Shown: positions 995 through 46,900 of the stretch, in pieces | Layout of the letters: every line of letters starts with the position of its first letter | Numbering within the stretch: position 1 is the stretch's first letter | NCBI GenBank assembly: GCA_034437255.1 | Contig: DAOTUH010000126.1 | Location: forward strand, 19,198-83,197 | Direction: 5' to 3' | Source of the DNA: Anaerolineae bacterium | GTDB taxonomy: Bacteria; Chloroflexota; Anaerolineae; B4-G1; SLSP01 | Length of the DNA stretch: 64,000 bases | Made by a program: the position numbers and the translations under genes | Notes under the pieces: generated by a model | The model's input: only the letters and a program-made list of their open reading frames with translations | Told to the model about the DNA's origin: nothing | Databases searched by the model: none

Positions 995-2350
995 TTAGCC
1001 AGGATTTACAGCCCAAGTTCGAGGATCGCTGGGACAGCCGGCCACGCAAATCAGCAGATCGGGACAGACGTCACAGCGGCTCGGCGCTTCGACCCGTTCC
1101 CGATAGACGCGGAAGGCCTCGTGCTGCCAGATGGTGTCCCAGTCGTCCTGCAGGAGATTACCCGCGCTGCGATAGCGTCCGCGCGGCGGCACCACGGTCC
1201 CGTCCGGCTCGATGCGCGCAGCCACGTCACCTGCACAGCGCGGCCCCAGGCGAACCTGCGCCTTGAGCGGGGTGTCGGGATCGCGCGCCACGGGCGGCGC
1301 CCAGATAAAACGTGCCTGCGCCCCGTGGGCCACCTCCTCGACGCGATTAGCGACCTGCGGCATAGCCTCAGCAACGAAAGCCTCGTCCTCGCTCAAAGCC
1401 GGGTCCGCCGTCGCGTAGGCGACGAAGATGATGTTGTCCGCACCTATCTCCAGGAGCGAGATCACCGTCGGCTCCAGAGCGTCCAGCGTCGGCTCGATCA
1501 GCGGTACCTCGGCCACGGCGCAGAGCCCGCTGGTCTCCAGCCAGGCGAAGAGTTCGGTGGCCGCCACATGGTCGCCCTCACCGAGCAGCGCATCGTGCAG
1601 CGCGCCGTCGGTCGCCGCGTAGGGCAGCGTGACGTGATCGACGCCCGCCATGGCGAGGTCCGGGACGAACTCGGTGATATCCATCGCGCGCCCGCGCACG
1701 CCCGCGATAAGGCCCAGATCCTCGGCCCGCTCCACGGCACGTACGAGGTGCGCGCCTTCCGGCGCGACGGGCGCCAGGAACGTGACGTGCGGAATCCCGA
1801 CCTCCCACAGCCGGTCGAGCAGCGGCACGAGGTGCTCGGGCGATGCCAGCGGCACGGCGGCCTCCAGCGGCGCGATCAACTCCGCCGCCTCCGCCGAGAA
1901 AGGCGCCGACTCCAGGTTGAAGACGGGATACGTGTCCCCCGGTTGTAGGATCTGTGCGATCAGTCCCTGGACGCGCTCAATGTCGGCGCGCATGGTGGCC
2001 TCTGTTGCCCCCTTGAAGTTCTGTTTCAGCCGCCGCAGGATGGTAGCCTCGTCGTCGCCGTCCAGAAGACCCTTGACGATGAGCGTGCCCGTCAGCGTGA
2101 GGCGGGCCGCGGCCGTCGCATTTGCGATGAGCATGCCGCTGCCGTCGCGCTCCACGCGCAGGTGAAAGCGCGTGATGGTGCCGTCGTCGCTCTCCTGCAT
2201 AACGTGGGTGAGTCCCGGCTCCAGGGGCGGGGACGGTTCGGGACGTTGGACGTCAAACAACCGTTTTAGCCAATTCGATGGTGACATCATCTCCTCCTCT
2301 GAGAACAAGTCAAAGGTGATTCTACTGAAAAAAGGTTGTGCCTCACGCAA
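995..2350 (-). CDS. Radical-SAM/SPASM-family paralog with N-terminal PqqD-like RRE domain; CxxxCxxC motif absent, predicted catalytically degenerate
   Basis: N-terminal ITRFHLRVERDGSGMLIANATAAARL resembles a PqqD-like RiPP recognition element. The C-terminal CDVCPDLLICVAGCP is SPASM-like. No CxxxCxxC is present anywhere. Overall co-linear with the 3375-4772 gene. Confidence 0.6.
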   Translation of the reverse strand: MREAQPFFSRITFDLFSEEEMMSPSNWLKRLFDVQRPEPSPPLEPGLTHVMQESDDGTITRFHLRVERDGSGMLIANATAAARLTLTGTLIVKGLLDGDDEATILRRLKQNFKGATEATMRADIERVQGLIAQILQPGDTYPVFNLESAPFSAEAAELIAPLEAAVPLASPEHLVPLLDRLWEVGIPHVTFLAPVAPEGAHLVRAVERAEDLGLIAGVRGRAMDITEFVPDLAMAGVDHVTLPYAATDGALHDALLGEGDHVAATELFAWLETSGLCAVAEVPLIEPTLDALEPTVISLLEIGADNIIFVAYATADPALSEDEAFVAEAMPQVANRVEEVAHGAQARFIWAPPVARDPDTPLKAQVRLGPRCAGDVAARIEPDGTVVPPRGRYRSAGNLLQDDWDTIWQHEAFRVYRERVEAPSRCDVCPDLLICVAGCPSDPRTWAVNPG

Positions 2351-2440
2351 AGACGCCGCCGACCAAAGGTCGGACAGTCGCCAAGATTTTAAATTTGTCC
2401 TTACTTTTCTGAATATTAAAGCCAGCCTAGATCAATAAAA

Positions 2441-2513
2441 TCTACCATCTTATGAATTTCCTTTGCGTTCTTGGCGCCTTTGCGTGAGGTTGATGGTTAT
2501 TTCAGTGAAGTCA
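2441..2513 (+). repeat. Conserved ~72-nt element R, copy 1, containing mini-ORF MNFLCVLGAFA (2452-2487)
   Basis: About 93% identical to 58141-58213. Outer inverted repeat ACCATC...GATGGT. Internal direct repeat CCTTTGCGT x2. Confidence 0.5.
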
Positions 2514-2556
2514 AAGGGCAAAGGTAAAAACCGGATTATTGAGAAGCCTATGAATC

Positions 2557-3351
2557 TCACGTGACGACGCGCAGCCAGCCGCCGTCGACGTAGTACGTCG
2601 AGCCGACGCAGTAACTGGCGCGCGGCGAGCAGAGAAAGACGAAGAAGTCGGCCAACTCCTCCGGCGTGGCGAAGCGCCCGATGGGTGTCTTTTCCTCGGC
2701 GATCTGCCGGAGGTACGTCTCCCAGCCCATCTCCCGACCGGCGGTCAGCGCTTTCGCCGTCTTGATCCAGTCGCCGGTCTGGATCAGGCCGGGGTTGATA
2801 CAGTTGACGCGGATGTTGTCGCCGATAAGCTCCTCGGCCAGGCACTTGGAGAACATGGCGAGTGCCGCTTTGGTGACGTTGTAGATGGGCTCGTAGCCCA
2901 GCGGCTGGCGGGCGCAGATGGAGGCGTTGTTCAGGATCACGCCGCCTCCGCGCGCTTGCATCAGGGGCGCCAGGCCCCGGGAGAGCCGCACCGCCGCCAT
3001 CACGTGCAGGTCCCAGTAATACTGCCACATCTCGTCCGGCGCCTCCAGGATCGTCTCGTTGCTGCCGGTCCCCGCGTTGTTGATGAGGATGTCGACGCCG
3101 CCAAAGGCGCGCTCGACCTCTTCGATCAACCGCTCGATGTCGCCGGCGACGGTCACGTCCGTGCGCACACCCAGCACCTCGACGTCGTGCGCGTCTCGAA
3201 TCTCCGCTGTTGCTTCGTTGAGCCGCGCAGCGTCCCGCGCGCAGAGCACCACGTGGACGCCTTCCGCCGCCAATCCCTTGGCAACCGCCAGTCCAATGCC
3301 CGCGCTCCCGCCCGTGATGACCGCGACGTTGCCTTCCAATCCAAGATCCAT
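2557..3351 (-). CDS. SDR family NAD(P)-dependent oxidoreductase
   Basis: TGGSAGIGLA Rossmann motif. YxxxK-type SDR core inferred from overall SDR-like sequence. Start moved from the track's 3429 to the ATG at 3351 (MDLGLEGNVAVITGG), which has a GAGG upstream and avoids overlap with the preceding gene. Confidence 0.85.
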   Translation of the reverse strand: MDLGLEGNVAVITGGSAGIGLAVAKGLAAEGVHVVLCARDAARLNEATAEIRDAHDVEVLGVRTDVTVAGDIERLIEEVERAFGGVDILINNAGTGSNETILEAPDEMWQYYWDLHVMAAVRLSRGLAPLMQARGGGVILNNASICARQPLGYEPIYNVTKAALAMFSKCLAEELIGDNIRVNCINPGLIQTGDWIKTAKALTAGREMGWETYLRQIAEEKTPIGRFATPEELADFFVFLCSPRASYCVGSTYYVDGGWLRVVT

Positions 3352-3374
3352 GTTTTCCTCTCTTTCTCTACCTT

Positions 3375-4772
3375 CTATCGACAGCCGTATGCGCGTGCCT
3401 CGCGCTCCAACCGGCAGCCGCCGCCGCACATCTCAAGATCAGGGCAATCCCAGCAGGTCTCCGGAAGCCCCGCCGCCTGCGGATTCTCCTCACGCTCCCG
3501 GAAACTACGGAAGAGATCGCTGTTCCAGATGGCGTCCCAGGGATCGCGCAGCAGGTTGCCCGCCGTCACGTAGTACGATTGGCAGGGCAACACGTCGCCA
3601 TTAGGCTCGACGCAGATGGAGTACTCAGCGGCGTTGCAGCGTTTGGGCGCCAGGCCCAGCGCCACCGGCGAGAGCTCGCAGTAGTCGGTCACGGTGTACC
3701 AGAGAAAGCGCATGCCCAGCTCGGCAGCGCGTTCCCGCACGGCCACCAGCACCGACGCCATCTCCTCCGCCGGGATCGCATCGGGCGTCGCCAGGCCGCG
3801 TCCCGCGTAGATTATGCCATTCATCGCGAAGGTCGTCAGGCCGAGGTTGTGCACGAAATCGACGGTCTCCAGAGCGTGATTGACGTTGCGGCGCGTCAGC
3901 GTGGTGTTGGTGATGGTGTGGAAATCGCACACCAGTGCGTTCTCAATGCCCCGCACGGTCTGCTTGAAAGCGTCAGCGTTGACCATAGCGTTGTGCACGT
4001 CGGCGCGGCAGGACTCCAGCGTGATCTGCACGTGGTTGAGGCCCGCGTCGCCCAGCGCGTCCACCAGCGGTCGATGGGAGAGCGCGCGCCCGTTGGTGTT
4101 CATCCCCACGATCTGGCCCAGGTCATCGGCGTGCCGGACGATGGCGGGTAGGTCTGGGTGCAGCGTCGGTTCGCCACCGGTGAGGATGATGTGCGGCACC
4201 CCCACGTCGGCCAGCGTCTCCAGCACGCGGAACCAGTCTTCGGTGGGCAGCGGGGGCATCTCACGTCGGCCCGGCTCGTTGTAGCAATGCGCGCAGGCGT
4301 TGTTGCACCGGTAGGTCAGCGCCAGGTCGGCTTTGAAGGGCGCGCTGACGGGCGTGCTAAAGAGCGGCGCGAATTCCACCAGCGACTGGACCGCGCAGGT
4401 CGGGCAGCCGGATTCGACGGTACGGAACCGGTCGATGAGTTCGTAGACCTGGGCCAGCGCCGCGTCGAGCGCCGCGCGCGCCACACCCCGGTACCGTTGT
4501 GCGAGCGCCGCGCGCGCCCGAGCCTGCGGCACGTCATCCAACGCCAGTTTCGCCATCTCCGTCGCCGTCGCGTTGAGATGCACGGCGTCGGTCACGTCGG
4601 CGAAGAGCACGCCCGATCCGTCCTCTGCAACGCGCAGATGCAAGCGCCGCTTGCCCTCCCTCACCGGCACCGGATACGTGTACAAGCCCGGTTCCGGCGG
4701 TGCAGGCGGCGCTAACAGCGTCCACGCTGCCTGAACCTCTTCTTGAACCTGCGCCCACCAGCTGCCCATCAA
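3375..4772 (-). CDS. Radical SAM/SPASM-domain enzyme (PqqE/MftC-like) with fused N-terminal PqqD-like RRE
   Basis: LTYRCNNACAHCYN carries the CxxxCxxC AdoMet-cluster motif. GGEPTLHPDL. C-terminal Cys-rich SPASM region CWDCPDLEMCGGGC. N-terminal LHLRVAEDGSGVLFADVTDAVHLNATATEMAKLAL resembles a PqqD/RRE fold. Confidence 0.85.
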   Translation of the reverse strand: MMGSWWAQVQEEVQAAWTLLAPPAPPEPGLYTYPVPVREGKRRLHLRVAEDGSGVLFADVTDAVHLNATATEMAKLALDDVPQARARAALAQRYRGVARAALDAALAQVYELIDRFRTVESGCPTCAVQSLVEFAPLFSTPVSAPFKADLALTYRCNNACAHCYNEPGRREMPPLPTEDWFRVLETLADVGVPHIILTGGEPTLHPDLPAIVRHADDLGQIVGMNTNGRALSHRPLVDALGDAGLNHVQITLESCRADVHNAMVNADAFKQTVRGIENALVCDFHTITNTTLTRRNVNHALETVDFVHNLGLTTFAMNGIIYAGRGLATPDAIPAEEMASVLVAVRERAAELGMRFLWYTVTDYCELSPVALGLAPKRCNAAEYSICVEPNGDVLPCQSYYVTAGNLLRDPWDAIWNSDLFRSFREREENPQAAGLPETCWDCPDLEMCGGGCRLEREARAYGCR

Positions 4773-4954
4773 TTACCTCTCATATCGGCCCGCGCGTAAC
4801 CCGCGCCGCGTCTACGAAGCAGGCACCTACACAACCAGACGCTCACCGGACGCGCCGCGCCACCGCTTCCAGCCGCGTTAGCGGCGTCGGGTTGATGCGC
4901 TGGTTAGGTGCCTCCGCTCTGCATACCAACCTCTTTACCCAAAAATCCTTGTTT

Positions 4955-6229
4955 TCAATCGGCTATTGCCATACCTCGTTCAACTACCTCAATCGCTTGT
5001 CCAACACCGTCTTCAGCACGGATCCGCTCACCCAATGCATCAGCATGTACCCGAATGTTTTTGTCTGTGACTGCCGTGGCAATCGCCGCTCCCAACTTCC
5101 TCACTGTCATTCTCTTGCGCGGTATTGCCTTCGGCCCAACACCAAGCCTCATTACCTGCCGCGCCCAGAATGGCTGATCACCAAAGTGGGGCACCAACAC
5201 CGAAGGCACACCTGCTCGCAACCCCGCAGCCGTCGTTCCCGCTCCACCATGATGCACCACCGCGGCTACGCGCGGGAATAGCCAATTGTGAGGCACCGAT
5301 TCAAGTTTGAACACACCATCCGGCAAATCAACACTCTTCAGCCCGCCCCAACCTGACGCAACCAGCCCTCGTTGCCCTGACCGCTTCAGCGCTTTCAGGA
5401 CGATCTCGGTCGTTGATTCTGGATCACGGCTTGACATACTTCCAAAGCCAACATATACCGGAGGTGGGCCAGCCTCAAGGAATCTCACTAAATCGGTGGG
5501 GGGGAGCCAATCTGACGAGTGGTCAAGGAACCAGTATCCTGTGACATGAATGTGCTCATCCCAATCCGGTGGCTTAGGGACGACAGATGGACTGTAGCTG
5601 TAAAGCATGGGTACCGGTCGTCCATCCAGCTGGCCATAGGGCCACTTGAAGAGCGAAATTGGCGGCAATCCCAACTGCTTTTGCCGCCAGTGGTTGATGA
5701 AGCGCCCCGTGAGCTGTTGTGCAAATTGCTCAACCATGATGTGTGTCGAGAGATTGTAACTGCCGCCTAAGGGGAGGAAAGGAAACGCCAGGTTCGGAAA
5801 GCTGCGGGTACGATTGAAGAAAGGAAACGGTAAGGCCCAAAAACAAGGCAATCTTTGCTTCTCAGCAATATGATAAGCTCCTATTCCAAGCGTTGAAAAG
5901 ATGATGGCTTCCGCCGTCTGAGAAGCCTGCCAGACTCTACCCGCGAGTTGCTCCAGCGTCGGCTGCATCATACGGATGATTTGCCACATTCCCTGAATGA
6001 CATTGCGGCCCGATTCTAGCACATCCCACGCAGCTTCTGTCCCCAACAACTCTCGTGCGTTCATGCCAAGAGAAAAGAAATCCAATCCTTGACTTCTGAC
6101 AAACCTCTCGAAATCATCAGTCGTGACAAAAGTCACTTCATATCGCCTGGTCTTCTGCAGCCCTACGCCCAGCGCCACGAGTGGTTGCACGTCACCACGC
6201 GAGCCAAGTGCCAAAATCATACTGCGCAT
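4955..6229 (-). CDS. GT1-family glycosyltransferase (MGT/UDP-glycosyltransferase-like)
   Basis: N-terminal ILALGSRGDVQP. C-terminal HHGGAGTTAAGLRAGVPSVLVPHFGDQPFWA is a UDP-sugar binding signature. AAGGAAA SD before the ATG at 6229. Confidence 0.85.
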   Translation of the reverse strand: MRSMILALGSRGDVQPLVALGVGLQKTRRYEVTFVTTDDFERFVRSQGLDFFSLGMNARELLGTEAAWDVLESGRNVIQGMWQIIRMMQPTLEQLAGRVWQASQTAEAIIFSTLGIGAYHIAEKQRLPCFWALPFPFFNRTRSFPNLAFPFLPLGGSYNLSTHIMVEQFAQQLTGRFINHWRQKQLGLPPISLFKWPYGQLDGRPVPMLYSYSPSVVPKPPDWDEHIHVTGYWFLDHSSDWLPPTDLVRFLEAGPPPVYVGFGSMSSRDPESTTEIVLKALKRSGQRGLVASGWGGLKSVDLPDGVFKLESVPHNWLFPRVAAVVHHGGAGTTAAGLRAGVPSVLVPHFGDQPFWARQVMRLGVGPKAIPRKRMTVRKLGAAIATAVTDKNIRVHADALGERIRAEDGVGQAIEVVERGMAIAD

Positions 6230-6299
6230 CGGCGTTTCCTTGGATATTCTACGTCAACCATTCATAGATTTAACAGCAAAGGGCACCTAACCAGCACGT

Positions 6300-6450
6300 G
6301 TGTGGCTCGGTGGGACACCGGCCACAGCGCATCGTGTCAGCATTCGCACTGTGTGGCTCGGTGGGACACCGGCCACAGCGTATCGTGTTAGCATTCGCAC
6401 TGTGTGGCTCGGTGGGACACCGGCCAAAGCGTATCGTGTCAACATCCAGT
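6300..6450. repeat. Tandem direct repeat, 3 x 51 bp
   Basis: GTGTGGCTCGGTGGGACACCGGCCACAGCG(C/T)ATCGTGT(C/T)AGCATTCGCACT repeated three times with 1-2 mismatches. Contains the hairpin core CGGTGGGACACCG. Confidence 0.9.
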
Positions 6451-6452
6451 AC

Positions 6453-6794
6453 CTACCACTTGGGCGCTTCTTCGATTTGATAGCTGGCGCCGCAGTAGGG
6501 GCACTCGACAAAAATCGCGCCGGCGCGCACCGAGAGATTATCTTTATCCAGAGTTCCGCCGCAGTTTCGGCACGTCATCTCTTCCAGCTTCACGTCGCCG
6601 CTAAGATCGATCTTCTGCACGATGGTCTTCTCCTCGTGCTTGGGCCGCACGCGGGTGAGATAAATCATCACGCCGGCCCCGGCCATCAGGATCACGCCGA
6701 CGATCACGCGGATAAACTGACCTTGCGCGCCGACGACGAACATCACGCCAAAGAACGCCAACACCGCTGCGATGATATAGGTCACAATCTCCAT
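6453..6794 (-). CDS. Small membrane protein with C-terminal zinc-ribbon
   Basis: TM helix IVTYIIAAVLAFFGVMFVVGA and a second hydrophobic segment. CRNCGG...CPYCG zinc ribbon. ACGGAGGTT SD before the ATG at 6794. The track's longer start at 6836 is judged less likely. Confidence 0.65.
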   Translation of the reverse strand: MEIVTYIIAAVLAFFGVMFVVGAQGQFIRVIVGVILMAGAGVMIYLTRVRPKHEEKTIVQKIDLSGDVKLEEMTCRNCGGTLDKDNLSVRAGAIFVECPYCGASYQIEEAPKW

Positions 6795-11643: not shown

Positions 11644-12408
11644 TTAGATTAGAGTTTCGATATCGGGCCACGAAGCCCGTAGTTCTTTCAATACGTCTCG
11701 CACAAACCGCCACGTGGCGGGTAGCAACAGGACCTGTCCTCCGGGAACCGAGGCTTTCACCGCCAACCCGGCGGCGCCCGTCGCCACCACAGAGACGAGA
11801 CGCGTCAGCGCGATGCGCGAGGCCAGCGCCAGATGCACTGCCTGCCGGTGTTCCGCTATCGAGGACGGCGTGAGCGCCGGCGCCCAGGTCGTGCCGAAGT
11901 CGCCCGTCCAGCCCACCTCGGTGCGACCGACGAACCGACCGCCCACGGTGGTCTCGATGCGGACGTAGTGCGAGACCATCTCGCGCACCCGCTCCACAAA
12001 GCTGTTCCATTGTTTGTAGGCGTCGCTGTCCATGACGCGCTCTGATTCACCCGGCCCAAACGCCACCGGCCGCTGCAGCGTGGTGACGCTTTGCCGCAGC
12101 GCTTGCCGAGGATCGGTCAGACGATCACCCGTGCCAAAGGCCACCGGCTCTGACGGGTCAAACCGTGCCAGTTCCCGCTCGGCGTGCGCCAGATCACGCT
12201 GGCTCAGTTCCAGCGCTTTCGCCCGCGCTGCCAACTCGGTCTGCGCCGCCTCTGGGTTTTCTGACAGGTCGACGCGCCAGGTCAGCACGTCGGGTGCTGC
12301 CTCGCCGGCGCCGAAGGAGACGGCCTCCGCTTCGACGGCCCAGATGCCCAGCGGATCTTCGGCCTCCGACCGCGAGACCCCGGTCAGCGTGAATCCGGCG
12401 CCGGTCAT
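11644..12408 (-). CDS. Hypothetical 254-aa protein, translationally coupled (ATGA overlap) to caspase-like gene
   Basis: ATG at 12408 overlaps the TGA of the upstream gene. Internal repeat PVAFGTGDRL / PVAFGPGESE. No recognised domain. Confidence 0.5.
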   Translation of the reverse strand: MTGAGFTLTGVSRSEAEDPLGIWAVEAEAVSFGAGEAAPDVLTWRVDLSENPEAAQTELAARAKALELSQRDLAHAERELARFDPSEPVAFGTGDRLTDPRQALRQSVTTLQRPVAFGPGESERVMDSDAYKQWNSFVERVREMVSHYVRIETTVGGRFVGRTEVGWTGDFGTTWAPALTPSSIAEHRQAVHLALASRIALTRLVSVVATGAAGLAVKASVPGGQVLLLPATWRFVRDVLKELRASWPDIETLI

Positions 12409-14375
12409 ACAGGCTTCAGGCTCTTGAGCAGATTCGTCGCCATCTCCGCCATGGCCTCCAGGAACTGCGCCCGGTTGATCTGGGCCTCCTTGACCATGTC
12501 GGCGTGAATCTTCCACAGCACCTCGTCGACACCGCCGTCCGCTTTCTCCGGCACATAGCTCTGGATGTCCCCGTCAAACTCGATACGCGTCAACGCACGC
12601 GGCGTCGCCGCAGCCTCTGCATCTTTGATGACAGCTGCGAGATCCTCAGTGGTGTAAGTTTCCACCTCCAGCGTGGGGATCTCCTCGGCGGCTTTGCCCA
12701 GCGCCTCCGCCAGTTGATCGGTGAAGGTGCGCAGCGAGTCGGTCAGCCCGGCGAACTGATCCCGCAGGCCGAAGGCGACGGCGTAGTCCTCGGCTCCTGA
12801 TGGCTCTGGTGCGAGCGCCGTGGTCGGTTCGCTTTCTTCCGAGGGTGCTGAGGCGGCTTCGCTCTCTGCTTCTGCCAGCTTCTCTTTTGTGCTCTCGCTG
12901 ATAGTGATGGTGGGACGCTCCGTCTGCGGGCTCTCTTCGTCCTCCGCCACCGAGAGGCGCACCGCCGGATCGCCGATGATGACGTAGCCGCGCGCGTCGT
13001 TGTTCGCCGTCCACATACCCGCTAGCTTCACGTCGTCGCGCCGCTTGTCGAACTCGTTGACCTCCTCGATCTCGCTGGCCAGCACCACGGAGAGCTCGGC
13101 GTGGCGCTCGTTGAACCACTCCAGAGCCGCGCCCACGGGATAACCGGCCATCAGCTGATCCAGCGTGTCTTGAAAGACCTGTAACTGGCGCCCTGCCCCG
13201 CTCCACAGGAAAGAGTATCCCCAGGCGCGCTCGACGTGGCCCACGACGGCCAACGCGCCGCCCTTGGGATGGCCCAGGAGCCGTTGCGGCAACCGCGCGA
13301 TAAAGGCGTGGGGCGCGATCTCGGCCGGCTCATCAAAGGCCCTGTGCGCAAACTGATCCAGCTTGGGCGTTCCCGCACCGTAGCAGGCGAAGAAGAAAGC
13401 CATGGTGCCGGCCAGCCGCGCGTTCGAGGCGACGTCATCGGCCGAGAAGTAGAACGCCTCAGGAATCGGATCGTGCCACTCACGGGGGCCAGGCCAATCC
13501 TCACAGAGCAGCGCGCCCTGGTGCTTGAGCTGGCGCGGGTCTCCTTTGGGAAAGCCCATCCCGTGACTGGCCGAGAAGAACAGTACCGGCGTCCCGTCGC
13601 CGCCCAACAGCGTTTCGAGACGCGCCTTGGTCGCCTGCCCGATGAACTGGCTATCCCACGACGGCTGTTTGTCCGACATGGCCTCGACCAGGGGACGCAC
13701 CAACTCCTTGGCACTCATCTCCGTCGCCCGGTCGTGCTGGTTCTTCACACCAAAGAATCGCGCGCGACGCGGCAGCCGTAAATCGCCGGTCTCCGCTGCC
13801 ACCACACTCTCCGCATACTGCGCGTACTCCTCGAGCGTGTCGAAGAAAATGCGCCCGACGGCATACTGCACGTCGAGCTGATACTGGAAGCGGTAGGGAA
13901 TCGTCTCTGGCCCGCCGACGATCAGCAGATAGTAGGGCACTTTGGCGGGATTGGCCGGCCCCGGCCCCATGTTGCGCGGATCGCGGCCCAAGAAATCCAA
14001 GTAGGAGTCGGCCGGCCGGTAGCCCGCCGCGCGCATGTACTCCTGATAGAATCGTTCGTCGTCCTGCGTGGCCTGCTCCTTGCGCAGATCCAACAGCGGC
14101 TTGAGGGCCTCACGGATCGCCGGGGCCCGTTCGTCCTTTGCTCCGAAAATTACGGCCCATCCCGTCTCCGCCAGGTTCGTCTGATCGGCATTGATGCCAA
14201 AATGTGGCTGCATGCTGTCATGGCGATTCTTCAACTCCCGGTAATACTCGTCATCTTTGCTCAAGGGCTCGCCCAGCGCGACCGACGCCACGTCCTCAGG
14301 CAGCATGGGCGGCGTCCAATACTTCCCGCTGGCACCATTGATACCATTGACGTAAAGCAGCTTCTCTTCATTCAT
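12405..14375 (-). CDS. Clan CD caspase/gingipain-like cysteine peptidase with extra C-terminal domain
   Basis: His motif LFFSASHGMGFP and Cys motif FFFACYGAGTP in the order and spacing typical of C14/C25 peptidases. ATG at 14375 overlaps the NTPase stop by 8 nt. Confidence 0.75.
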   Translation of the reverse strand: MNEEKLLYVNGINGASGKYWTPPMLPEDVASVALGEPLSKDDEYYRELKNRHDSMQPHFGINADQTNLAETGWAVIFGAKDERAPAIREALKPLLDLRKEQATQDDERFYQEYMRAAGYRPADSYLDFLGRDPRNMGPGPANPAKVPYYLLIVGGPETIPYRFQYQLDVQYAVGRIFFDTLEEYAQYAESVVAAETGDLRLPRRARFFGVKNQHDRATEMSAKELVRPLVEAMSDKQPSWDSQFIGQATKARLETLLGGDGTPVLFFSASHGMGFPKGDPRQLKHQGALLCEDWPGPREWHDPIPEAFYFSADDVASNARLAGTMAFFFACYGAGTPKLDQFAHRAFDEPAEIAPHAFIARLPQRLLGHPKGGALAVVGHVERAWGYSFLWSGAGRQLQVFQDTLDQLMAGYPVGAALEWFNERHAELSVVLASEIEEVNEFDKRRDDVKLAGMWTANNDARGYVIIGDPAVRLSVAEDEESPQTERPTITISESTKEKLAEAESEAASAPSEESEPTTALAPEPSGAEDYAVAFGLRDQFAGLTDSLRTFTDQLAEALGKAAEEIPTLEVETYTTEDLAAVIKDAEAAATPRALTRIEFDGDIQSYVPEKADGGVDEVLWKIHADMVKEAQINRAQFLEAMAEMATNLLKSLKPV

Positions 14376-17300
14376 AATTACTCTCCTCTGCGAATCCCTC
14401 CGCGTCCAAGTCCAACTCACTTTCCACGTACTGCCAGGATAAATCCAACACGTCCTCGAACCGTACCAGATACCGCCGTATGGTGCCATCCCTGGAACCG
14501 GAGGCCAGATAGTGGCCATCGGGGCTGAAGGCCAACGTGTACACGATGGGATCGGTATGCCCAGGAAGCACAGCCATCAACGTTGGCGCGCGGGCTGGGA
14601 ATCGATCCAACTTCCAGAGGCGCACGTGACTATCACGCGCCGCCGTCGCCAGGTACAGCCCGTCGGGTGAGAAAGCGACACCATAGACGAAGGCCGGATG
14701 CTTCAACGGCGCTACCACGGTCGTCATGGTCTGCATGCTCCAGAGGCGCGCCGTCTGGTCCCACGCGCCGGAGGCCAAATATTGGCCATCAGGGCTGAAG
14801 TCCAGGGCAGGCACGTAGTTGCTGTGCCCCGTCAGCGTGACCGCCATCGTGACGGAGAGGCCACGCTCGGTCTCTCGCACATCGAAGAGGTGGATGTTCC
14901 CACCCAGGTAGCCCAACGCCATCCGGTCCCCCTGAGGACTTAATGTCCCACCCCAGAGGCCGCCGCGCGGAATCGTCACGCGATGATCAAGCGTCCAATC
15001 CTCCGTCCGCCAGACAAAAGCCTGCCCGCCATTGGAGACAGTGAGGAGGAAGCGACCGTCCGGCGTGAAGAAGGCCCGCTCCACATCTGCACGGTGTCCT
15101 GTCAACGTGGCGATAAGCGCACCCGTGCCCGTGTCCCATACCCTCGCATTGTTATCCGTGGCGCAGGAGACCAGATATGCGCCGCTAGGACTATACACCA
15201 GGTCCCAGAGCTCACCGCCAAGATAGCCTTCGATCTCCCGGACCACGTTGCCGTGCACCTGGGACCAGATACGCACCTCTCCGCTCTTACTGGCCGAAGC
15301 GAGGAACGTGCCATCAGGGCTGTACGTCACCTTGCGCACCAAGTCGCTGTGTCCCGTGAGCGTCGAAAGACCGGCCTGCCGGGGGAAATCCCGGTCCCAG
15401 ATGCGCACCGTGTTGTCACCGGCGCCGGCAGCCACCCAGCGGTCATCCGGGCTGAAAGCAACGTCCAGCACTACGTTGCCCGGCCCCCTCAACACGCTGA
15501 TGGCGTGCTGGTTACGCGAGCCTACGTCCCATAGATGCACCGTCCGATCCCGCGAGCCGGAGAGCAGATAGCGCCCGTCGGCACTGAAGGCCAGGGTTCT
15601 CACCTCGGCGCTGTGCCCGACCAGTGTCAGAACGGCCTCACCTGTGTCGAGATCCCAGAGTCGAATCGTTTTATCGGCGGAGGCCGAGGCCAACAGCGGT
15701 TCCGTCGGGCTGAAAGCCACCGCTTCCACGGCTTCGGTATGGGCCGTCAGTTGGCGCGGCGGGCTGACCGACAGCAGGCTAGGACCTAGAGCCCGCAACT
15801 GCCAGAGCCAAACCGTCCCGTCGTAGCACGCCGCTGCCAGGGTGAATGGCTCTCCAGTAACCATGGCTTCGATAGGTGAAGCGGTGCCTGTGAACGCAAG
15901 ATCGGCCACGCGGCGCGGCAGCTCGTCCAGGGTGAGCAGCAGCTCCGGCACCAGCGTATCGCCCCGCCGGCCCAGGGACCAGATCCGTATCAGCCCCTCT
16001 TGATCAGGTGAGTAGACATCCCGCAGCGTTTCCCCATAATCCCCACCCGTGGCAAGATAGTAGCCCTGCGGGTCGAAGGCCACGGTGTAGATCTCATCGT
16101 ACATCCCATCCGGCGTTATGACGCGCAGGCTTTCTACCCACGTCTCGGCCTCTGTGTCCCAGATTTCCACGATGCCGCCGGTCTCTCCATCGTCGCCGCC
16201 GGTCGCCAGAAACCGTCCGTCGGGACTCAACGCAAGATCGTAAACGGCACCCCGCGTCGGGAGAGGGATTAGCGTTTTCACGTTCATGCGAGTGTCGATG
16301 CGTTGCACGCCGCCGGCGGGCAGTGCTGTATAGAGAAAGCGACCGGTCTCGTCATAGGCTACGCTATGCACTTGATCCATCAGGCCCCCATACACCGAGA
16401 CGGGATAATACTCCTGCACCGCCTGGCGCAGCATGATTTGGGCCTCGTAGGTATTGATCTCGCCCATCAGCGTCTGGCTGCTCTCCTGCCACCAGCCGCG
16501 CAGACTGGGCTGAGTCCCGGCGCGGGCCAACCGGATGCTCTGCTCCCGGTCGGTCTCCAACACCGAGCGTGCCTTGGCGGCCAACTCGCGGGAATAGGCC
16601 TGCAGGCCGTTACGCATGGCTATCCACGCCAGCAGGCTGACCACAACCAGCACCATCCCGGCGAAGACGGCGCCCACGAGACGCAAACGGCGTGCGCGGC
16701 GCTGCGCTTGATCGGCCCGGCGGCTGGCTTCCAAGAACTCCTCTTCGAAGGGCTCCAGCTGGTCGGGATGGACCTCGGCCCAGGCGAGCGCCTCCTCCAG
16801 CGTCGCGTCGAGGTACAGGAGCGCCGCGTCGTCGGTCTCCTTCCACCGCTTAGCCGTGGTGCGCAGCGGCGTCTGCCGCGCCGCCTCCCACGTGCGGTTC
16901 GACTGCCGGATGGGATCGATAAGCCGGTCGTGGACCAGCTCATACCAGCGGGCACCGGCGCGCAGGTCCGAGCGGATGAGGTGCCGGGCATCCAGCACAT
17001 CGACGGCGGTGTTGGGCAGACCGGCGGTCTCCTCCGGCCCGCGCATAGCCAGGCCGCGCGTTCCCACCGACGTGATAAGATGCTCGGCGGTCCAGCGACG
17101 CACCTGCCGTTCGGGCACCTCGGTCTCGGCGATGACGTGGGCGATGGCGCTCTCGTAGAAATCGACCAGGGCACGGTCAATATCGCCGTATTGCTGAACC
17201 TCGTTCCACTGGATCAGGTTGTCTTCCTGAGCCGGCAGGTTCGCCCACAGCCGCTGACAGACCACCTGCAGCTGCACCGGCTCGACGAAGCGCCCCAGCA

Positions 17301-18048
17301 CCTCAACCTCGTCGTCGCGCCCATACCGCTGCACCTTGCTGCGTCGCAGGTCGTCGACCAGGCGCTCGGCCACGCCCTCGTCGAAGGGAACGCCGGTCTG
17401 GGCCGCCGGCTTGCGGACGGCTTGGATGGCGCCCTCGACGCCCAGCCGCTCCATACGGAAGCGAGCGCGGAGCCGGCGGGGCAGCAGCGGCGCGTAGGGC
17501 TCGACTTCGGCAACGTAATCCTCCCGCATGGCAAAGACCACGCCCAACGTGGGCAGCGCGTCCAACGCCCCCTCAACCTGGACGAAGAAACTCTCGGCGT
17601 CCTGCCAGCGGTGGCGGTGCGCCGTAAAGAGCTCCTCGAACTGATCGACGATGAGCAGCGGCGGGCGGTCGTCATCGGGCAGATACGTCTGCAAGAAATC
17701 GAGCAGGGACTGTTCGCCCAGTGGCGCCGGCGGCTCGTCCTCGCCGACCAGCGAGAGCAGCACACTGAAGACGAAGACGTTGTCCACGTCCGCGTCGGTC
17801 AGGCCGGGCGGCAGATCGTTGGCGACGCGCACCACGGGCAGCACGTTGAAAAGCTCCTCCTCCAGCGCGAGGATGACCTCGGCGTTGAGCAATGACGTCT
17901 TGCCGGCGCCAGAGGGCGCGTAGAAGAGCACCACGCGCTCGGCCAGGATCAGGGAGAGCAAGTCGCGTGCCTCGCGGTTGCGCCCGAAGAAATTCTTGCG
18001 GTCGGCGCGCTCGTAGGGGCGGGGACCGACGTAGGGATTTCCTTTCAT
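14368..18048 (-). CDS. STAND-like (nSTAND1-like N-terminus) P-loop NTPase - single TM helix - WD40 beta-propeller
   Basis: The N-terminus NPYVGPRPYERADRKNFFGRNREARDLLSLI...LFYAPSGAGKTSLLNA shows an nSTAND-like signature. Hydrophobic helix LVGAVFAGMVLVVVSLLAWIAM near residue 480. At least 10 WD40 repeats (GHSAEVRTLAFSADGRYLLSGSRDRTVHLWD and others). Start ATG 18048 overlaps the upstream stop as ATGA. Confidence 0.85.
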   Translation of the reverse strand: MKGNPYVGPRPYERADRKNFFGRNREARDLLSLILAERVVLFYAPSGAGKTSLLNAEVILALEEELFNVLPVVRVANDLPPGLTDADVDNVFVFSVLLSLVGEDEPPAPLGEQSLLDFLQTYLPDDDRPPLLIVDQFEELFTAHRHRWQDAESFFVQVEGALDALPTLGVVFAMREDYVAEVEPYAPLLPRRLRARFRMERLGVEGAIQAVRKPAAQTGVPFDEGVAERLVDDLRRSKVQRYGRDDEVEVLGRFVEPVQLQVVCQRLWANLPAQEDNLIQWNEVQQYGDIDRALVDFYESAIAHVIAETEVPERQVRRWTAEHLITSVGTRGLAMRGPEETAGLPNTAVDVLDARHLIRSDLRAGARWYELVHDRLIDPIRQSNRTWEAARQTPLRTTAKRWKETDDAALLYLDATLEEALAWAEVHPDQLEPFEEEFLEASRRADQAQRRARRLRLVGAVFAGMVLVVVSLLAWIAMRNGLQAYSRELAAKARSVLETDREQSIRLARAGTQPSLRGWWQESSQTLMGEINTYEAQIMLRQAVQEYYPVSVYGGLMDQVHSVAYDETGRFLYTALPAGGVQRIDTRMNVKTLIPLPTRGAVYDLALSPDGRFLATGGDDGETGGIVEIWDTEAETWVESLRVITPDGMYDEIYTVAFDPQGYYLATGGDYGETLRDVYSPDQEGLIRIWSLGRRGDTLVPELLLTLDELPRRVADLAFTGTASPIEAMVTGEPFTLAAACYDGTVWLWQLRALGPSLLSVSPPRQLTAHTEAVEAVAFSPTEPLLASASADKTIRLWDLDTGEAVLTLVGHSAEVRTLAFSADGRYLLSGSRDRTVHLWDVGSRNQHAISVLRGPGNVVLDVAFSPDDRWVAAGAGDNTVRIWDRDFPRQAGLSTLTGHSDLVRKVTYSPDGTFLASASKSGEVRIWSQVHGNVVREIEGYLGGELWDLVYSPSGAYLVSCATDNNARVWDTGTGALIATLTGHRADVERAFFTPDGRFLLTVSNGGQAFVWRTEDWTLDHRVTIPRGGLWGGTLSPQGDRMALGYLGGNIHLFDVRETERGLSVTMAVTLTGHSNYVPALDFSPDGQYLASGAWDQTARLWSMQTMTTVVAPLKHPAFVYGVAFSPDGLYLATAARDSHVRLWKLDRFPARAPTLMAVLPGHTDPIVYTLAFSPDGHYLASGSRDGTIRRYLVRFEDVLDLSWQYVESELDLDAEGFAEESNYE

Positions 18049-20090
18049 CGTTGCGTCGCCTCCCACCGCTCGCGCAGCTCGGCCGTGAATTGATGTGTGC
18101 TACCCCAGAAGACGTTGATCTCAGCATCCTGGAAATACTGGCGCAGGAAGTGCTGCACGGCGCCTACGTCCTCCACCTTCCCACTGGCGCTGTCCAGTTG
18201 TACCGTGACGTGCTTGAAACGGTGTCGCTGATTGAGCGTGGTCACCAAGCCCCGCAGGATCACGCGAAACTCCCAATCGTAGAGGCTGTACCCGATGAAG
18301 AGCAGCGTGCTGTTAGCCAGCGCGCCCCGGATGTACGTGGGGATGCGCTCCATCTCCGCCGAGACCTTGACGAGGAAGTCGAGGTAGTGATCGGAGGTGA
18401 GCACCAGGGATTCCGGCACCTCGTCGTGACCGAAGAGATGGTAGACCAGCGGCGTGTCCGGCGTCGGCACGTAGTTGGGATCATCGGCAAAGCGGCTGGA
18501 GAGCCAATCCAGGTCGCGGTGCCAGGGGCAGATCTCGCGTTCAGCGTCTCGACCGCGCGCGGCTAGGGCCGCCGTCATGAAGTTATCGAGGTTGGTGGTG
18601 ACGTAGAGCGGCAAATTTAGATCTGCCAGCACCTCGTGCGGATCGTTAGGATCGTCACCGGCGATGCGCTGCCATTCCACTGCATCCACCAGATCCGACA
18701 CGCTCTCCGGCGGTTGGGATGGTTGCAATTCCTCCGGCAATCGCTCGTAGAAATGGTTCACCATGGTACTCAGCAGTTCGTAGCGGGGGAAATCCTCGCC
18801 CTGGCTGCTGGCGAGATACTGCGCCACCCACGGCAAGACGATGCGGTCGGCGAAGGGATAGGCGTGAAGTCGCGTCCACCCACCGGCGATTTCTCGGGGC
18901 AGGGGCAACCAGCGCCCATGCACTCTTGGCCCGATCACGGGGATGCACTTGCCGCGCTGGATCATACGCAGGAGTCCGGTCCAGAAGATCCGGGGATTCT
19001 GCCCACCCAGCACCGCGCCGCGCGCGTCGGCTTCGGCGCTCCACAGTTGGGCTGACTTGAGCCGCATAAAGAGCACGGGCACGGCAGCATCGGGGCGACC
19101 GGCGGAAAGCAACGTGCTCCGCGCCACGTTGAGCGCCACGTCCACCTGCCCGTCTTCAAGGAGTCGACAGTAGAACGTCGCGCTGAGCTTGCGGGCCGTC
19201 TCCACCGCCACAAAATCCTGCATGGCAACGACGGCGGGCACGCCGACGGCGACCAGCTTCGGCGCCAGTCCCCGGAAGGCGTCGCCGGTAGCCCGCTGCG
19301 CGCTCTGGCAGGCATTCAGAAAGATCAGGCGGGGTCGCACGTCCTGGCGCGCCAGCGTATGCACCAGCGCCTCGTCGGTAACGAGCTCCGTGGCGCCGTC
19401 CTCGTTCTGGAGAAAGAGCACGGCCCGCTCGCGCCGCCGGCTGTAGGCGCCGTGCCCCACGTAGTGCAGGATGTGATACCCTTCGCGCAACGCTGCTTCA
19501 AGCCGTTCCAGCGTGACGGGCGGCTCCAGAAAATCGAGGGCGATCTCGTCCTCGCTCATCTCTTCAAAAGCCGCCGTGAGCAGCGCGCGCTCGGTCTCCG
19601 TCTCCACCGGCGTCAGCTCGTAGGCCGATGCCAGATCACTGGGATTGGAGATGACCGCCAGCACACGAATGGGGCGTTCTTCGACGGCGCCGCCCCAAGG
19701 TAGCGAGACGGGCAGATAGCGCGAGAAGGGTGTCTTCGCCGTCGCCGAGAGCAGCGTCGTCCCGGTGTGGAGCAGTTCCCAGGGCAGCACGTGGAGCTCC
19801 GCCGCCTGCGCGTCGATGCGCAGCCTGATCCGGCGGCGTTCCGCTTGCCCGCGCACCTCGCTCCAGGCCTGGCGCAGCGCGTCGTCTTCTAGAAGCAAAT
19901 CGAGGAGCTGCTGCCCATCGGCTACGGGATCGCCGCTAGAGGTCCAGTTGGCCGCCTCCGCCGCCAGATAACCCCGGGGGAACTCCTGCTCTCCCTCAAG
20001 CGTGATCTCGACGGGATACCCTTGCTCTCGTCGGGGAAAGATGCGGACTTCCAAATCCGCGAATCCGTTCTTGGTGCCGGTTTCACGCAT
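18045..20090 (-). CDS. CHAT-domain protease fused to SIR2-like (SIR2_2-type) domain
   Basis: CHAT His/Cys dyad HYVGHG...LIFLNACQSA. C-terminal PLYVTTNLDNF...LLFIGYSLYDWEFRVIL matches SIR2_2-like motifs. ATG at 20090 with AAGGA SD preferred over the TTG at 20186. Confidence 0.8.
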   Translation of the reverse strand: MRETGTKNGFADLEVRIFPRREQGYPVEITLEGEQEFPRGYLAAEAANWTSSGDPVADGQQLLDLLLEDDALRQAWSEVRGQAERRRIRLRIDAQAAELHVLPWELLHTGTTLLSATAKTPFSRYLPVSLPWGGAVEERPIRVLAVISNPSDLASAYELTPVETETERALLTAAFEEMSEDEIALDFLEPPVTLERLEAALREGYHILHYVGHGAYSRRRERAVLFLQNEDGATELVTDEALVHTLARQDVRPRLIFLNACQSAQRATGDAFRGLAPKLVAVGVPAVVAMQDFVAVETARKLSATFYCRLLEDGQVDVALNVARSTLLSAGRPDAAVPVLFMRLKSAQLWSAEADARGAVLGGQNPRIFWTGLLRMIQRGKCIPVIGPRVHGRWLPLPREIAGGWTRLHAYPFADRIVLPWVAQYLASSQGEDFPRYELLSTMVNHFYERLPEELQPSQPPESVSDLVDAVEWQRIAGDDPNDPHEVLADLNLPLYVTTNLDNFMTAALAARGRDAEREICPWHRDLDWLSSRFADDPNYVPTPDTPLVYHLFGHDEVPESLVLTSDHYLDFLVKVSAEMERIPTYIRGALANSTLLFIGYSLYDWEFRVILRGLVTTLNQRHRFKHVTVQLDSASGKVEDVGAVQHFLRQYFQDAEINVFWGSTHQFTAELRERWEATQR

Positions 20091-20206
20091 GATCGTATCC
20101 TTGGCTATGGAAAATGCGCCACTTGAAGTGTGTCGGCCCAGATTCACCGAAGGTTCAAAAATAGTATAGCATAGATTTGAGGGCAAAACAATAGAGGTGT
20201 GGGAAG

Positions 20207-20262
20207 TGTTGCGTGTTGCGTATTGCGTGTTGCGTGTTGCGTGTTGCGTGTTGCGTGTTGCG
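20207..20262. repeat. Heptanucleotide microsatellite (TGTTGCG)x8, one unit TATTGCG
   Basis: Directly visible. Lies in the divergent intergenic region between the CHAT-SIR2 operon start and degV. Confidence 0.95.
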
Positions 20263-20386
20263 TGATGGTCTCTGTCGGGGTTTGACTTTGTAGGCGTACG
20301 ATGAGAGGATGCCGGGGCGGATGGGTGTCTTGAGTCTGGTGTGGAGTATAATAAGAATCGACAATAAGAGATCCAGGAAGGAGATT

Positions 20387-21250
20387 ATGAGCAGTTCAAA
20401 GGTAGCACTGGTCACCGATAGCACCTGCGATATTCCCGTCGAGATGGTAGAGCGGTACGAGATTGTCGTCATTCCGGCGTACGTCATCTGGGGTGAGGAG
20501 CAATTCAAGGACCGTGTGGATCTGCATGCCAGGGAGTTCTATCAACGTTTGCAGAGCGATTCGGTCTATCCGTCGTCGTCTCATCCTACGCCCGGCGATT
20601 TCTTCAAGCTTTACCAGCGCCTGATTGACGAGGGCGCCGAGGAGATCGTGGTCGTCACTGTGAGTAGTGCCATGAGCGGCACGTACAACGCCGCCAAACA
20701 GGCCGGCGGGATGGTTGAGTCTCCCGTCCACGTGGTGGATTCGAAGGGACCGTCTATGTCTCTGGGCTGGCAGGTGCTGGCGGCGGCCCGGGCGCGCGAG
20801 GCCGGCGGCGGGGCGGAGGCCATGGTCGCCGCGGCCGAGGACGCGCGCTCGCGCATGGCCCAGCTGGTCTACATGGAGTCCATCGAGTATCTCCACAAGG
20901 GCGGGCGCATCGGCAACGCGGTGAATCTACTGGGGACGCTGCTCAAAATCAAGCCCGTGGTGTACATCGATCACGAGACCGGCATGGTGAACGTGGAGAC
21001 CGCCGCGCGCACGCGCAAGCGCGGCATCAACACGCTCTACAAGGGCTTCTTCAAGCGGCTGGACACGACGAAGCCGCTCCACGTCGCCGTGCTCCATGGC
21101 GACGTGCCGGAGGACGCGCAGGCGCTGGCGGCGCGCATCCGCGAGGAACTCAACCCTAAGGAACTGGTCATCAACATCACCGGGCCCGTGCTGGGAATCA
21201 ACACCGGCCCGGAGGCGCTGGCGCTGGCGGGATATACGGAAGCGACATAG
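20387..21250 (+). CDS. DegV family fatty-acid-binding protein
   Basis: KVALVTDSTCDIP N-terminus and overall DegV/EDD fold signature. GGAAGGAG SD before the ATG at 20387. Confidence 0.85.
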   Translation: MSSSKVALVTDSTCDIPVEMVERYEIVVIPAYVIWGEEQFKDRVDLHAREFYQRLQSDSVYPSSSHPTPGDFFKLYQRLIDEGAEEIVVVTVSSAMSGTYNAAKQAGGMVESPVHVVDSKGPSMSLGWQVLAAARAREAGGGAEAMVAAAEDARSRMAQLVYMESIEYLHKGGRIGNAVNLLGTLLKIKPVVYIDHETGMVNVETAARTRKRGINTLYKGFFKRLDTTKPLHVAVLHGDVPEDAQALAARIREELNPKELVINITGPVLGINTGPEALALAGYTEAT

Positions 21251-30183: not shown

Positions 30184-30332
30184 GTATCTGTTTAGTCTTC
30201 TGGGGTACGACGCACTTTCGCTGACGTTCACGAACCTGGGATTCCTAAACTATGCTCGTAAAATATTGTAGCCCGGTTTGTTTCGGTTCGTAAGTGCGTT
30301 GCACCTGGACGCTCACAAACCTAGACGGTTAC
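30184..30332 (+). repeat. Conserved structured element E, copy A (5' leader of BMP gene)
   Basis: Nested potential helices CTGTTTAG/CTAGACGG and GGTACGACGCAC/GTGCGTTGCACC. Ends 40 nt before the GTG start at 30374. Confidence 0.55.
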
Positions 30333-42972: not shown

Positions 42973-43121
42973 GTATCTGTTTAGTCTTCTGAGGTGCGAC
43001 GCACTTTCGCCGAAGTTCACGAGCCGAGGACTCCTAAACCATGCTCGGAGAACTTTGTAGCGCGGTTTATTTCGATCCGTAAGTGCGTTGCACCTGGACG
43101 CTCATAAACCTAAACGGTTGC
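42973..43121 (+). repeat. Conserved structured element E, copy B (5' leader of ABC ATPase gene)
   Basis: About 95% identical to copy C and about 85% to copy A. Ends 20 nt before the ATG at 43142. Confidence 0.55.
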
Positions 43122-46671: not shown

Positions 46672-46900
46672 GGAGGCCGGGGGCGGGCACGGTGGGGACA
46701 CCGGCCCGAACGAGAAGGTAGGCGTGATGGGGAGGCCGGGAACGGGCACGGTGAGGACACCGGTCCGAACTAGAGAAGAGCGGGCGCGGTGGGGAGACTG
46801 GGGGCGGGCACGGTAGGGACACCGGCCCGAGCGAGAGAAGGGCGGGCGCGGTGGGGAGATCGGCCCGAACTTTAGGGACACCGGCTCGAGATACCCGTGG
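46672..46900. repeat. Tandem direct repeat, ~60 bp x 3.5
   Basis: Units GGAGGCCGGGGGCGGGCACGGTGGGGACACCGGCCCGAACGAGAAG.... Shares the core CGGTGGGGACACCGGCC with the 6300-6450 array. Confidence 0.9.

Follow-up and report, generated by a model that had tools for sequence, protein, structure and literature searches.

What two short tandem arrays represent in the genome of an Anaerolineae bacterium (Chloroflexota) is the question raised by a 64,000-nt stretch of contig DAOTUH010000126.1, hereafter the window, to which all window counts refer. An initial annotation had described the arrays as unrelated apart from a hairpin core common to both, and had set a peptide-coding role for the first of them against a repeat acting at the nucleic-acid level. 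We found that both arrays are very probably tandem, head-to-tail clusters of repetitive extragenic palindromic (REP) elements, belonging to a system that pairs REPs with REP-associated tyrosine transposases (RAYTs) and that is widespread in Chloroflexota. The system is found especially in Anaerolineae, Ardenticatenaceae and Promineifilaceae. RAYTs are dedicated transposase-like enzymes that spread REP elements through bacterial genomes.

Both arrays were confirmed as they had been claimed, with three units of 51 bp in array 1 and about 3.5 units of about 60 bp in array 2 (Table 1). Each array 1 unit consists of one REP hairpin and a 21-nt spacer, and the units follow one another head-to-tail. 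The array 2 units, also head-to-tail and 59–62 bp each, hold one intact REP hairpin with a 4-nt loop plus one degenerate copy, and the partial copy that brings the total to ~3.5 units reaches ~46890. The sequence CGGTGGG(G)ACACCGGCC is present in both arrays, confirming the shared hairpin core, which takes the form GGC-N-CGGTG-loop-CACCG-GCC with GGA or GGGA as the loop on the plus strand. The hairpin of array 1 unit 3 reads GCT-GT-GGC-CGGTG-TCC-CACCG-A-GCC-AC, while hairpin 46678..46714 of array 2 reads GTT-CG-GGC-CGGTG-TCCC-CACCG-T-GCC-CG; comparison of the unit sequences showed that a G-to-T change breaks one outer pair in the hairpin of array 1 unit 1. The arrays thus proved not to be unrelated, as they belong to the same hairpin family, with a 3-nt vs. 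a 4-nt loop and a bulge at the identical position. The 9-mer GGACACCGG occurred seven times in the window, always inside the two arrays (expected 1.02; 0 of 100 shuffles reached seven), a count in which copies inside one array are not independent and for which a covariance model, R1, is the better test.

R1 was built from 65 hairpins, 63 from other genomes and two from the window. The element is a G+C-rich hairpin with a 10–12 bp stem, a one-base bulge in the 3′ arm and a loop of 3 or 4 nt, and a conserved unpaired GCT sits immediately 5′ of the stem. Within the alignment (A2), this motif is G (≥90%), then C or T, then an invariant T directly 5′ of the stem; it lay outside the pattern used for the genome scan described below, five to three bases 5′ of the core, yet was conserved. 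Both the first (T-A 38, G-C 11, C-G 10) and the second outer pair (G-C 47, C-G 8) covaried, with a covariation score of 0.153 compared to 0.038 in shuffles (0 of 500 shuffles reached it), and 98.8% of cells were paired across the 65 sequences. The tag and outer pairs were also apparent in the window, as GCT-GT...AC in array 1 and GTT-CG...CG in array 2. R1 matched the window seven times, only in the two arrays and always on the minus strand, with no other match at E < 0.1. Values for both arrays ranged from 1.5e-10 to 1.4e-7 (0.0034 for the degenerate end copy), which, together with the shared flanking tag, argues against a chance likeness of the two arrays.

We assessed the spread of the hairpin by scanning one genome per species with the pattern GGCCGGTGT-N(0,1)-CYCACCG-N-GCC, and the core matched at least 105 stretches in species-representative genomes. 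About 23 of these (loops TGCC, TGCT, TTCT, TTCC and TACC; mostly Streptomyces, Pseudomonas and similar genomes) were set aside as chance or protein-motif matches in coding sequence, such as 'AGVPTVPG' in ATP-grasp enzymes, and a few coding matches with family-type loops (TCC, TCT, TCCC, TCCT) were also excluded. Among the matches listed, the other 82, with those same four loops, were mostly in Chloroflexota metagenome-assembled genomes (MAGs), and the carriers listed for this phylum were Anaerolineae, Anaerolineales, Ardenticatenaceae, Promineifilaceae, Ca. Leptofilum, Thermoflexales and Chloroflexia. Several loci could come from one genome, e.g. at least nine in JAGNBF and at least 12 in DATHSI. 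When applied to 733 kb of fetched loci, R1 gave 107 matches, including extra copies within 8-kb loci. Inverted pairs 28–29 nt apart were frequent, with inverted doublets in L013, L058, L076, L077, L082, L085, L098 and L110 and adjoining P0120, a RAYT gene described below. Strong R1 matches were mostly intergenic (57 of 75, by a crude open reading frame (ORF) call) and showed no orientation bias relative to neighbouring genes; the hairpin adjoins unrelated genes in either orientation, between divergent and convergent genes alike. Scattering of the core as a generic REP, which the initial annotation had named as a test, was therefore what other genomes showed, with dispersed and mostly intergenic copies in many Chloroflexota genomes.

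One of the carriers, the MAG DATHSI, is labelled Candidatus Sulfomarinibacteraceae (Acidobacteriota) and has the identical hairpin core at no fewer than 10 loci (L023, L028, L044, L048, L060, L063, L076, L082, L098 and L109). Most of its copies lie within a longer palindromic element (gggagcactaaaagtttgtgagttg ... cacaacattttcgcactccc). Either the REP-RAYT system has crossed between phyla, or this MAG has been binned or labelled wrongly.

Physical linkage to RAYT genes was found from both the repeat and the protein side. Starting from the hairpins, a 181-aa ORF (L029 372–917) was bracketed by inverted hairpins at 306(+) and 1042(−), and a RAYT homologue in L031 and a RAYT remnant in L075 likewise adjoin hairpins. 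Three RAYTs passed the 80-bit cut-off of NCBIfam NF047646, 'REP-associated tyrosine transposase', at 83.8 (L029), 80.9 (P0120) and 83.7 bits, while Pfam gave no recognition for the two that were submitted (L029 and the L075 remnant). For the reverse search, a RAYT alignment was used to fetch relatives from metagenome contigs, which returned eight loci, none from the samples of the window. R1 hairpins adjoin the gene at six of these eight homology-derived loci, on the plus strand where they lie upstream and on the minus strand where they lie downstream. Hairpins occur on both sides of the RAYT in L029, L128 and L130, on one side in L129, L131, L133 and L135, and as clusters beside it in L136 and L141. 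The family comprises 694 proteins at E ≤ 1e-10, and members from Anaerolineae, Ardenticatenaceae and Promineifilaceae MAGs have already been named RayT or REP-associated tyrosine transposase by several sources. H59 and H61 (HUH) and the catalytic Y139 were invariant in nine of nine RAYTs compared. Dispersal and linkage to RAYT genes together bear out the earlier preference for a nucleic-acid-level element resembling REPs or bacterial interspersed mosaic elements (BIMEs) over a peptide.

The RAYT P0120 was found by protein search and exact look-up in five samples, all five of which also hold the organism of the window, and these include a long-read assembly with a 256-kb version of the window locus. 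Its gene is embedded between REP clusters at L136 2166–2486 and 3067–3408, with ~20 hairpins around it. A 3-nt-loop hairpin (TTGT-GAC-CGGCG-TCC-CGCCG-T-GTC-ACAGTG) is found there in one orientation and 4-nt-loop hairpins (GGGC-A-CGGCG-GGGA-CGCCG-GCCC-GAAC) in the opposite orientation, some of them in head-to-tail runs. One REP copy beside P0120 matches the array 2 core (hairpin 46678..46714) at 97% identity across 30 nt, and the spacer that follows it, GAGAAGGT, is also common to array 2. Because the P0120 clusters hold both hairpin types, the two arrays would, by their sequences, correspond to two hairpin types of one REP system, with array 1 of the 3-nt-loop and array 2 of the 4-nt-loop type.

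Another RAYT, P0110, comes from a different community and has tandem inverted REP doublets upstream of its gene with a 76-nt period. The number of doublets is 2, 3 or 4 across assemblies (L141 972–1236, L143 760–1100, L144 786–1050 and L146 409–597). Tandem amplification is therefore a habit of this REP family.

To compare strains, contigs were found via exact look-up of flanking proteins, and derived from an Andean microbial-mat project, two JGI samples and one NCBI MAG. The product of the gene next to array 1, a 113-aa Zn-ribbon protein, was present in exact form on 15 contigs; look-ups with the longest-ORF starts (127-aa Zn-ribbon; DUF1385) gave no match, and matches were obtained with the 113-aa start and a neighbouring gene. 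Array 1 has two units in L002, L007 and L011, three in the window, six in L001 and seven in L006. Compared to the window, array 2 is ~121 nt (two units) shorter in L118, L120 and L121, equal in length in L122, within 3 nt in L123 and expanded to ~12 units in L119, giving a range of ~1.5 to ~12 units across strains. The flanking proteins are identical between the compared strains (the Zn-ribbon protein for array 1 and inositol monophosphatase for array 2). Both arrays behave as variable-number tandem repeats, since unit number differs between near-identical strains. Of 10 contigs shown with the Zn-ribbon gene, six break off at array 1, no more than a few tens of bases beyond that gene. Neighbouring array 1 units are ~94% identical as a block, hairpin and spacer included, which suggests that the arrays would have grown by duplication of whole units, through replication slippage or unequal recombination, rather than by repeated insertion. 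Junction variants such as CACACACGTACTGGATG, in which the right end of the array is fused to the left end, are consistent with either process.

How the hairpins would have reached these sites can be outlined from what is established for TnpA-REP of E. coli and for IS200/IS605 insertion sequences (PMC8266576). The RAYT would bind the folded hairpin on single-stranded DNA, with the bulge and the 5′ tag serving as recognition and guide elements, and would cut at a nearby dinucleotide, so seeding new copies. The invariant T of the tag is preceded by C in most copies, giving CT, and CT is the dinucleotide cut in E. coli (PMC8266576).

Several points weigh against assigning the arrays to a REP-RAYT system. 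No RAYT lies within the window, which itself holds just two loci with seven hairpins, and P0120 is on a separate contig; that it belongs to the same genome is probable from sample co-occurrence and REP similarity, and the tetranucleotide correlation of its contig with the window (0.92) is non-discriminating. Two of the 65 seeds of R1 are window sequences, and the scan required an exact core, such that sequence constancy is overstated. The GTAG tag typical of most RAYT-associated REPs is absent. Finally, the hairpins in the window are arranged head-to-tail, whereas the replicative unit in REPIN-type systems is an inverted doublet.

Table 1 Features of the two arrays and the genes next to array 1 (window positions)
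Feature	Position	Strand	Evidence or remark
Array 1	6294-6445	minus	Tandem Repeats Finder: period 51, 3.0 copies, 94% matches
REP hairpin, array 1 unit 3, 3-nt loop	6296..6331	minus	R1 46.6 bits, E = 4e-10
REP hairpin, array 1 unit 2	6347..6382	minus	R1 47.7 bits, E = 2e-10
REP hairpin, array 1 unit 1	6398..6433	minus	R1 38.5 bits, E = 5.5e-8
52-aa ORF through array 1, three 17-aa units	6287..6445	minus	ATG at 6445; judged incidental
Array 2	46672-46863	minus	Tandem Repeats Finder: period 62, 3.2 copies, 82% matches
REP hairpin, array 2	46678..46714	minus	R1 48.1 bits, E = 1.5e-10
REP hairpin, array 2	46737..46773	minus	R1 37 bits, E = 1.4e-7
REP hairpin, array 2	46799..46835	minus	R1 41.6 bits, E = 8e-9
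Degenerate REP copy, array 2 end	46837..46873	minus	R1 20.4 bits, E = 0.0034
113-aa membrane protein gene (Zn-ribbon), CxxC...CxxC motifs, upstream of array 1	6453-6794	minus	
GT28/EryCIII-type glycosyltransferase gene, downstream of array 1	4955-6229	minus	Pfam

Array 1 lies between the Zn-ribbon membrane gene and the glycosyltransferase gene, as the initial annotation had placed it. Beyond the glycosyltransferase gene follow genes for a radical S-adenosylmethionine (rSAM)/SPASM protein, an SDR and a SPASM-like protein, all on the minus strand (Pfam). The Zn-ribbon protein is conserved in Anaerolineae, and its 235 homologues carry names that mark them as proteins of Anaerolineae MAGs. In relatives with a Zn-ribbon protein of 87% or 78% identity, the distance from the Zn-ribbon gene to the rSAM/SPASM gene downstream is 27 nt (L149–L151) or 190 nt (L152 and L153, no hairpin), and at this site L149–L153 have no glycosyltransferase, no array, no hairpin and no ORF of the kind that runs through array 1. 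Since array and glycosyltransferase are lacking there, both are lineage-specific additions within a conserved cassette. The cassette (window 995–6794, minus; L149–L153) consists of the 113-aa membrane Zn-ribbon protein, then the rSAM/SPASM protein with an N-terminal extension, the SDR (in closer relatives) and a 430-aa SPASM-like protein with a faint PqqD-like match; no precursor peptide gene was noticed in its intergenic gaps in the window or L149–L153.

Array 2 has a DUF1385 gene on one side and, on the other, a 53-aa ORF for the N-terminal part of a YitT-like protein. This ORF (46872–47033, minus) matches just the first 30 of 205 YitT profile positions (E = 4e-4) and runs directly into array 2. 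The REP cluster appears to occupy the place of the rest of the YitT-like gene.

An improbable alternative is that the hairpins are primarily cis-regulatory for these operons, as RNA attenuators or stabilisers or as a protein operator array, and are not a mobile, RAYT-linked repeat. Array 1 is on the sense strand within an operon, and a single hairpin (6296..6331) folds at −21.2 kcal/mol as RNA (z = −3.5) and −11.8 as DNA; single-hairpin folding energies were well below those of shuffles, and array 2 folded better than shuffles on the plus strand (z = −4.4). Folding of array 1 as a whole was unremarkable (z = −1.75 and −2.66). E. coli REPs are also known to have secondary effects on mRNA. If transcribed in the operon, array 1 would give three RNA hairpins of about −21 kcal/mol each, and these, if they act as REPs do in E. 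coli, could shield the message upstream or lower expression of the glycosyltransferase and rSAM genes downstream. A primary role of this kind is difficult to reconcile, however, with the occurrence of the same hairpin beside unrelated genes in either orientation and flanking RAYT genes, its absence from the orthologous site in relatives, and the variation of unit number among strains. The stems are not followed by a T-run, and a scan for promoters and terminators returned no prediction within array 1. Rfam gave no window match at gathering score and no relevant match at E ≤ 1 in five element-bearing loci, and for the proposed operator array no support was found. A secondary effect on expression is compatible with a REP origin of the arrays and does not amount to an alternative origin.

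We consider it very improbable that the hairpins are terminal parts of a miniature inverted-repeat transposable element (MITE) moved by a classical DDE transposase, with the RAYT link being coincidental. Doublets do lie inside a longer palindromic element with inverted ends in some loci (GTAACTGTACAG...CTGTACAGTTAC in L013, L081 and L110), as also in DATHSI loci (gggagcactaaaagtttgtga...tcacaacattttcgcactc). The outer flanks nevertheless vary between genomes while the hairpin remains constant, and no target-site duplications were seen around single copies (judged by eye in the sequences, with no formal test). Adjacency of hairpin and RAYT was moreover found in both search directions, at three loci in one and at six of eight in the other, and for both RAYTs examined individually (P0120 and P0110). 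This is far above chance for a single-copy gene and disfavours coincidence.

Least probable of these, and barely credible, is that array 1 encodes a multi-core precursor with three 17-aa units, MLTRYA(L/V)AGVPPSHTVR, modified by the adjacent rSAM/SPASM enzymes. The 52-aa minus-strand ORF on which the initial annotation had based this idea does exist and starts with an ATG, although it begins 7 nt past the upstream stop codon rather than 6, and every unit has an ATG of its own. Both rSAM/SPASM-like proteins have N-terminal extensions and there was one weak PqqD/RRE-like match (E = 2e-4, far below cut-off), so a peptide substrate for the rSAM cluster is plausible. The reading frame, however, is not maintained in other strains: in L006 (Illumina), unit lengths of 51, 51, 52, 52, 53, 53 and 53 place the starts in frames 0,0,0,1,2,1,0, and the six units of L001 start in frames 0,0,0,2,1,0. 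Out-of-frame units are as conserved in DNA as in-frame units, and the length of the ORF is 35, 52, 53 or 70 aa depending on strain. Of four recurrent polymorphisms, two are non-synonymous (Tyr/Cys, and Pro/Ser within the loop of the hairpin) and two are silent changes at Leu codons; the stem shows no variation. Further, 'AVAGVPPSH' is simply what results when the hairpin is translated, and this hairpin occurs in either orientation at numerous unrelated intergenic sites. An ORF through array 1 is expected by chance, as a unit contains no stop codon in two of the three minus-strand frames. The MLTRYAVAGVPPSHTVR-repeat peptide matched no family model, and the relatives described above, with their rSAM/SPASM gene in place, have no such ORF. 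The rSAM cluster may have a peptide substrate, but this is not array 1.

Other candidates were rejected outright: a CRISPR array (no unique spacers, and whole 51-bp units that are contiguous and 94% identical), an intrinsic terminator (no T-run and no orientation bias) and a riboswitch or other known RNA (no Rfam match, and an element found in any gene context).

Recognition of the arrays as REP clusters has practical consequences. They are not genes, and ORF calls through them should be masked; the precursor of the neighbouring rSAM cluster should be sought elsewhere than in array 1. REP repeats break contigs and complicate assembly and binning, whereas unit number, which separates co-occurring strains, could provide strain markers. 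R1 can be used to map this REP family across Chloroflexota, and a RAYT system with a bulged hairpin and no GTAG offers a contrast case for how RAYTs choose their substrate and cleavage site. A 243-aa 'gene' without Pfam match has been called through the expanded array 2 of a long-read assembly (L119 8423–9154), which is an annotation artefact. The short length (~1 kb) of many contigs with a RAYT gene fits breaks in the assembly at flanking REPs.

The window also holds a second, unrelated dispersed element of ~149 bp, in three same-strand copies (42973–43121, 47229–47377 and 30184–30330). Identity to the first copy is 96% and 87% for the other two, and another Anaerolineae MAG has a copy with 93% identity (L038 4818–4967). 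The element has sharply defined ends that carry imperfect terminal inverted repeats (GTATCTGTTTAG / CTAAACGGTTGC), and an 8-bp direct duplication flanks each copy (CGGAGGGT, CAAGTTTT, GAACTACC, TAGCAGAA/TAGCAAAA). The element looks like a MITE, and had no Rfam match at E ≤ 1. Elsewhere, the heptamer GTGTTGC is repeated 8.4 times with 96% identity (20206–20264) between a CHAT-SIR2 gene (18045–20186, minus) and a DegV gene (20309–21250, plus). The minus-strand run at 12405–20186 is made up of large genes whose domains are characteristic of conflict or NLR-like systems, including a weak C25-like peptidase match, an nSTAND1 NTPase-WD40 fusion (1232 aa) and a CHAT protease-SIR2-like fusion. Cumulative GC skew has its minimum at ~17000–20000, and the prevailing gene strand turns from minus to plus nearby.

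Among known systems, the REP/BIME elements of E. coli and their TnpA-REP (RayT/YafM), together termed a 'REPtron' (PMC8266576), resemble the present one in several respects. Both have short G+C-rich imperfect palindromes with a stem irregularity, a conserved unpaired motif adjoining the stem on its 5′ side, one HUH/Tyr transposase gene flanked by repeats, and repeats that are mostly extragenic and of two types differing in loop length. The bulge of the E. coli REP is required for activity (PMC8266576). The 5′ tag differs, being G-C/T-T here and GTAG in E. coli, as does the stem irregularity, which is a single bulged base here and two mismatches in E. coli. The arrays in the window are head-to-tail in a single orientation with the loop types in separate arrays, whereas BIMEs alternate, and the RAYTs here have ~181 aa and are barely above the NCBIfam cut-off (80.9–83.8 vs. 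80).

The REPIN-RAYT system of Pseudomonas fluorescens SBW25 (PMC3116915) is alike in that inverted doublets are common, singlets and ordered tandem arrays occur too, and REP clusters adjoin the RAYT gene; in its ordered tandem arrays, flanking sequence is repeated along with the REP (PMC3116915). It belongs to another phylum and has another sequence and tag, while the arrays described here have one REP orientation, periods of 51 and ~60 bp and a copy number that varies among co-occurring strains. The GTAG and CGTC REP superfamilies (PMC3733652) share a stem of 8–13 bp, a loop of 3–5 nt, head-to-head dimers, occasional intragenic copies and clusters, but neither tag occurs in the hairpins of alignment A2. 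These hairpins are therefore not to be filed in the tagged superfamilies of that survey, in which Thermomicrobium roseum GTAG-23 is the sole Chloroflexi entry, bulged repeats escaped the search and head-to-tail dimers are rare (PMC3733652). With IS200/IS605 elements (IS608, ISDra2), the system would have in common an HUH/Tyr enzyme that acts on single-stranded DNA, recognising subterminal hairpins that have a guide sequence on their 5′ side. The hairpins here differ in being free-standing and far outnumbering the gene, which fits the RAYT model and not a full insertion sequence.

A bolder proposal, which we regard as unlikely although worth stating, is that these elements form a distinct GTAG-less REPtron group with recognition rules of its own, a near-invariant core and a host-level role, in which the arrays are strain-variable expression dials. 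The G-C/T-T tag and single bulged base would then replace GTAG and the double mismatch as recognition rules, and head-to-tail arrays in operons would act as strain-variable dials on downstream genes. The exact-core scan found the core near-constant over several Chloroflexota orders, and also in one MAG with an Acidobacteriota label. A core so constant would point to a role for the RAYT-REP pair at host level instead of simple parasitism.

A literature search found no description of this REP sequence (matches to the core sequence were irrelevant) and no paper pairing REPIN with Anaerolineae. Every defining REPtron feature that could be tested was present except the GTAG/CGTC tag. The REP sequence is apparently newly described, while the kind of repeat is already known and the RAYT genes have already been named in public annotations.

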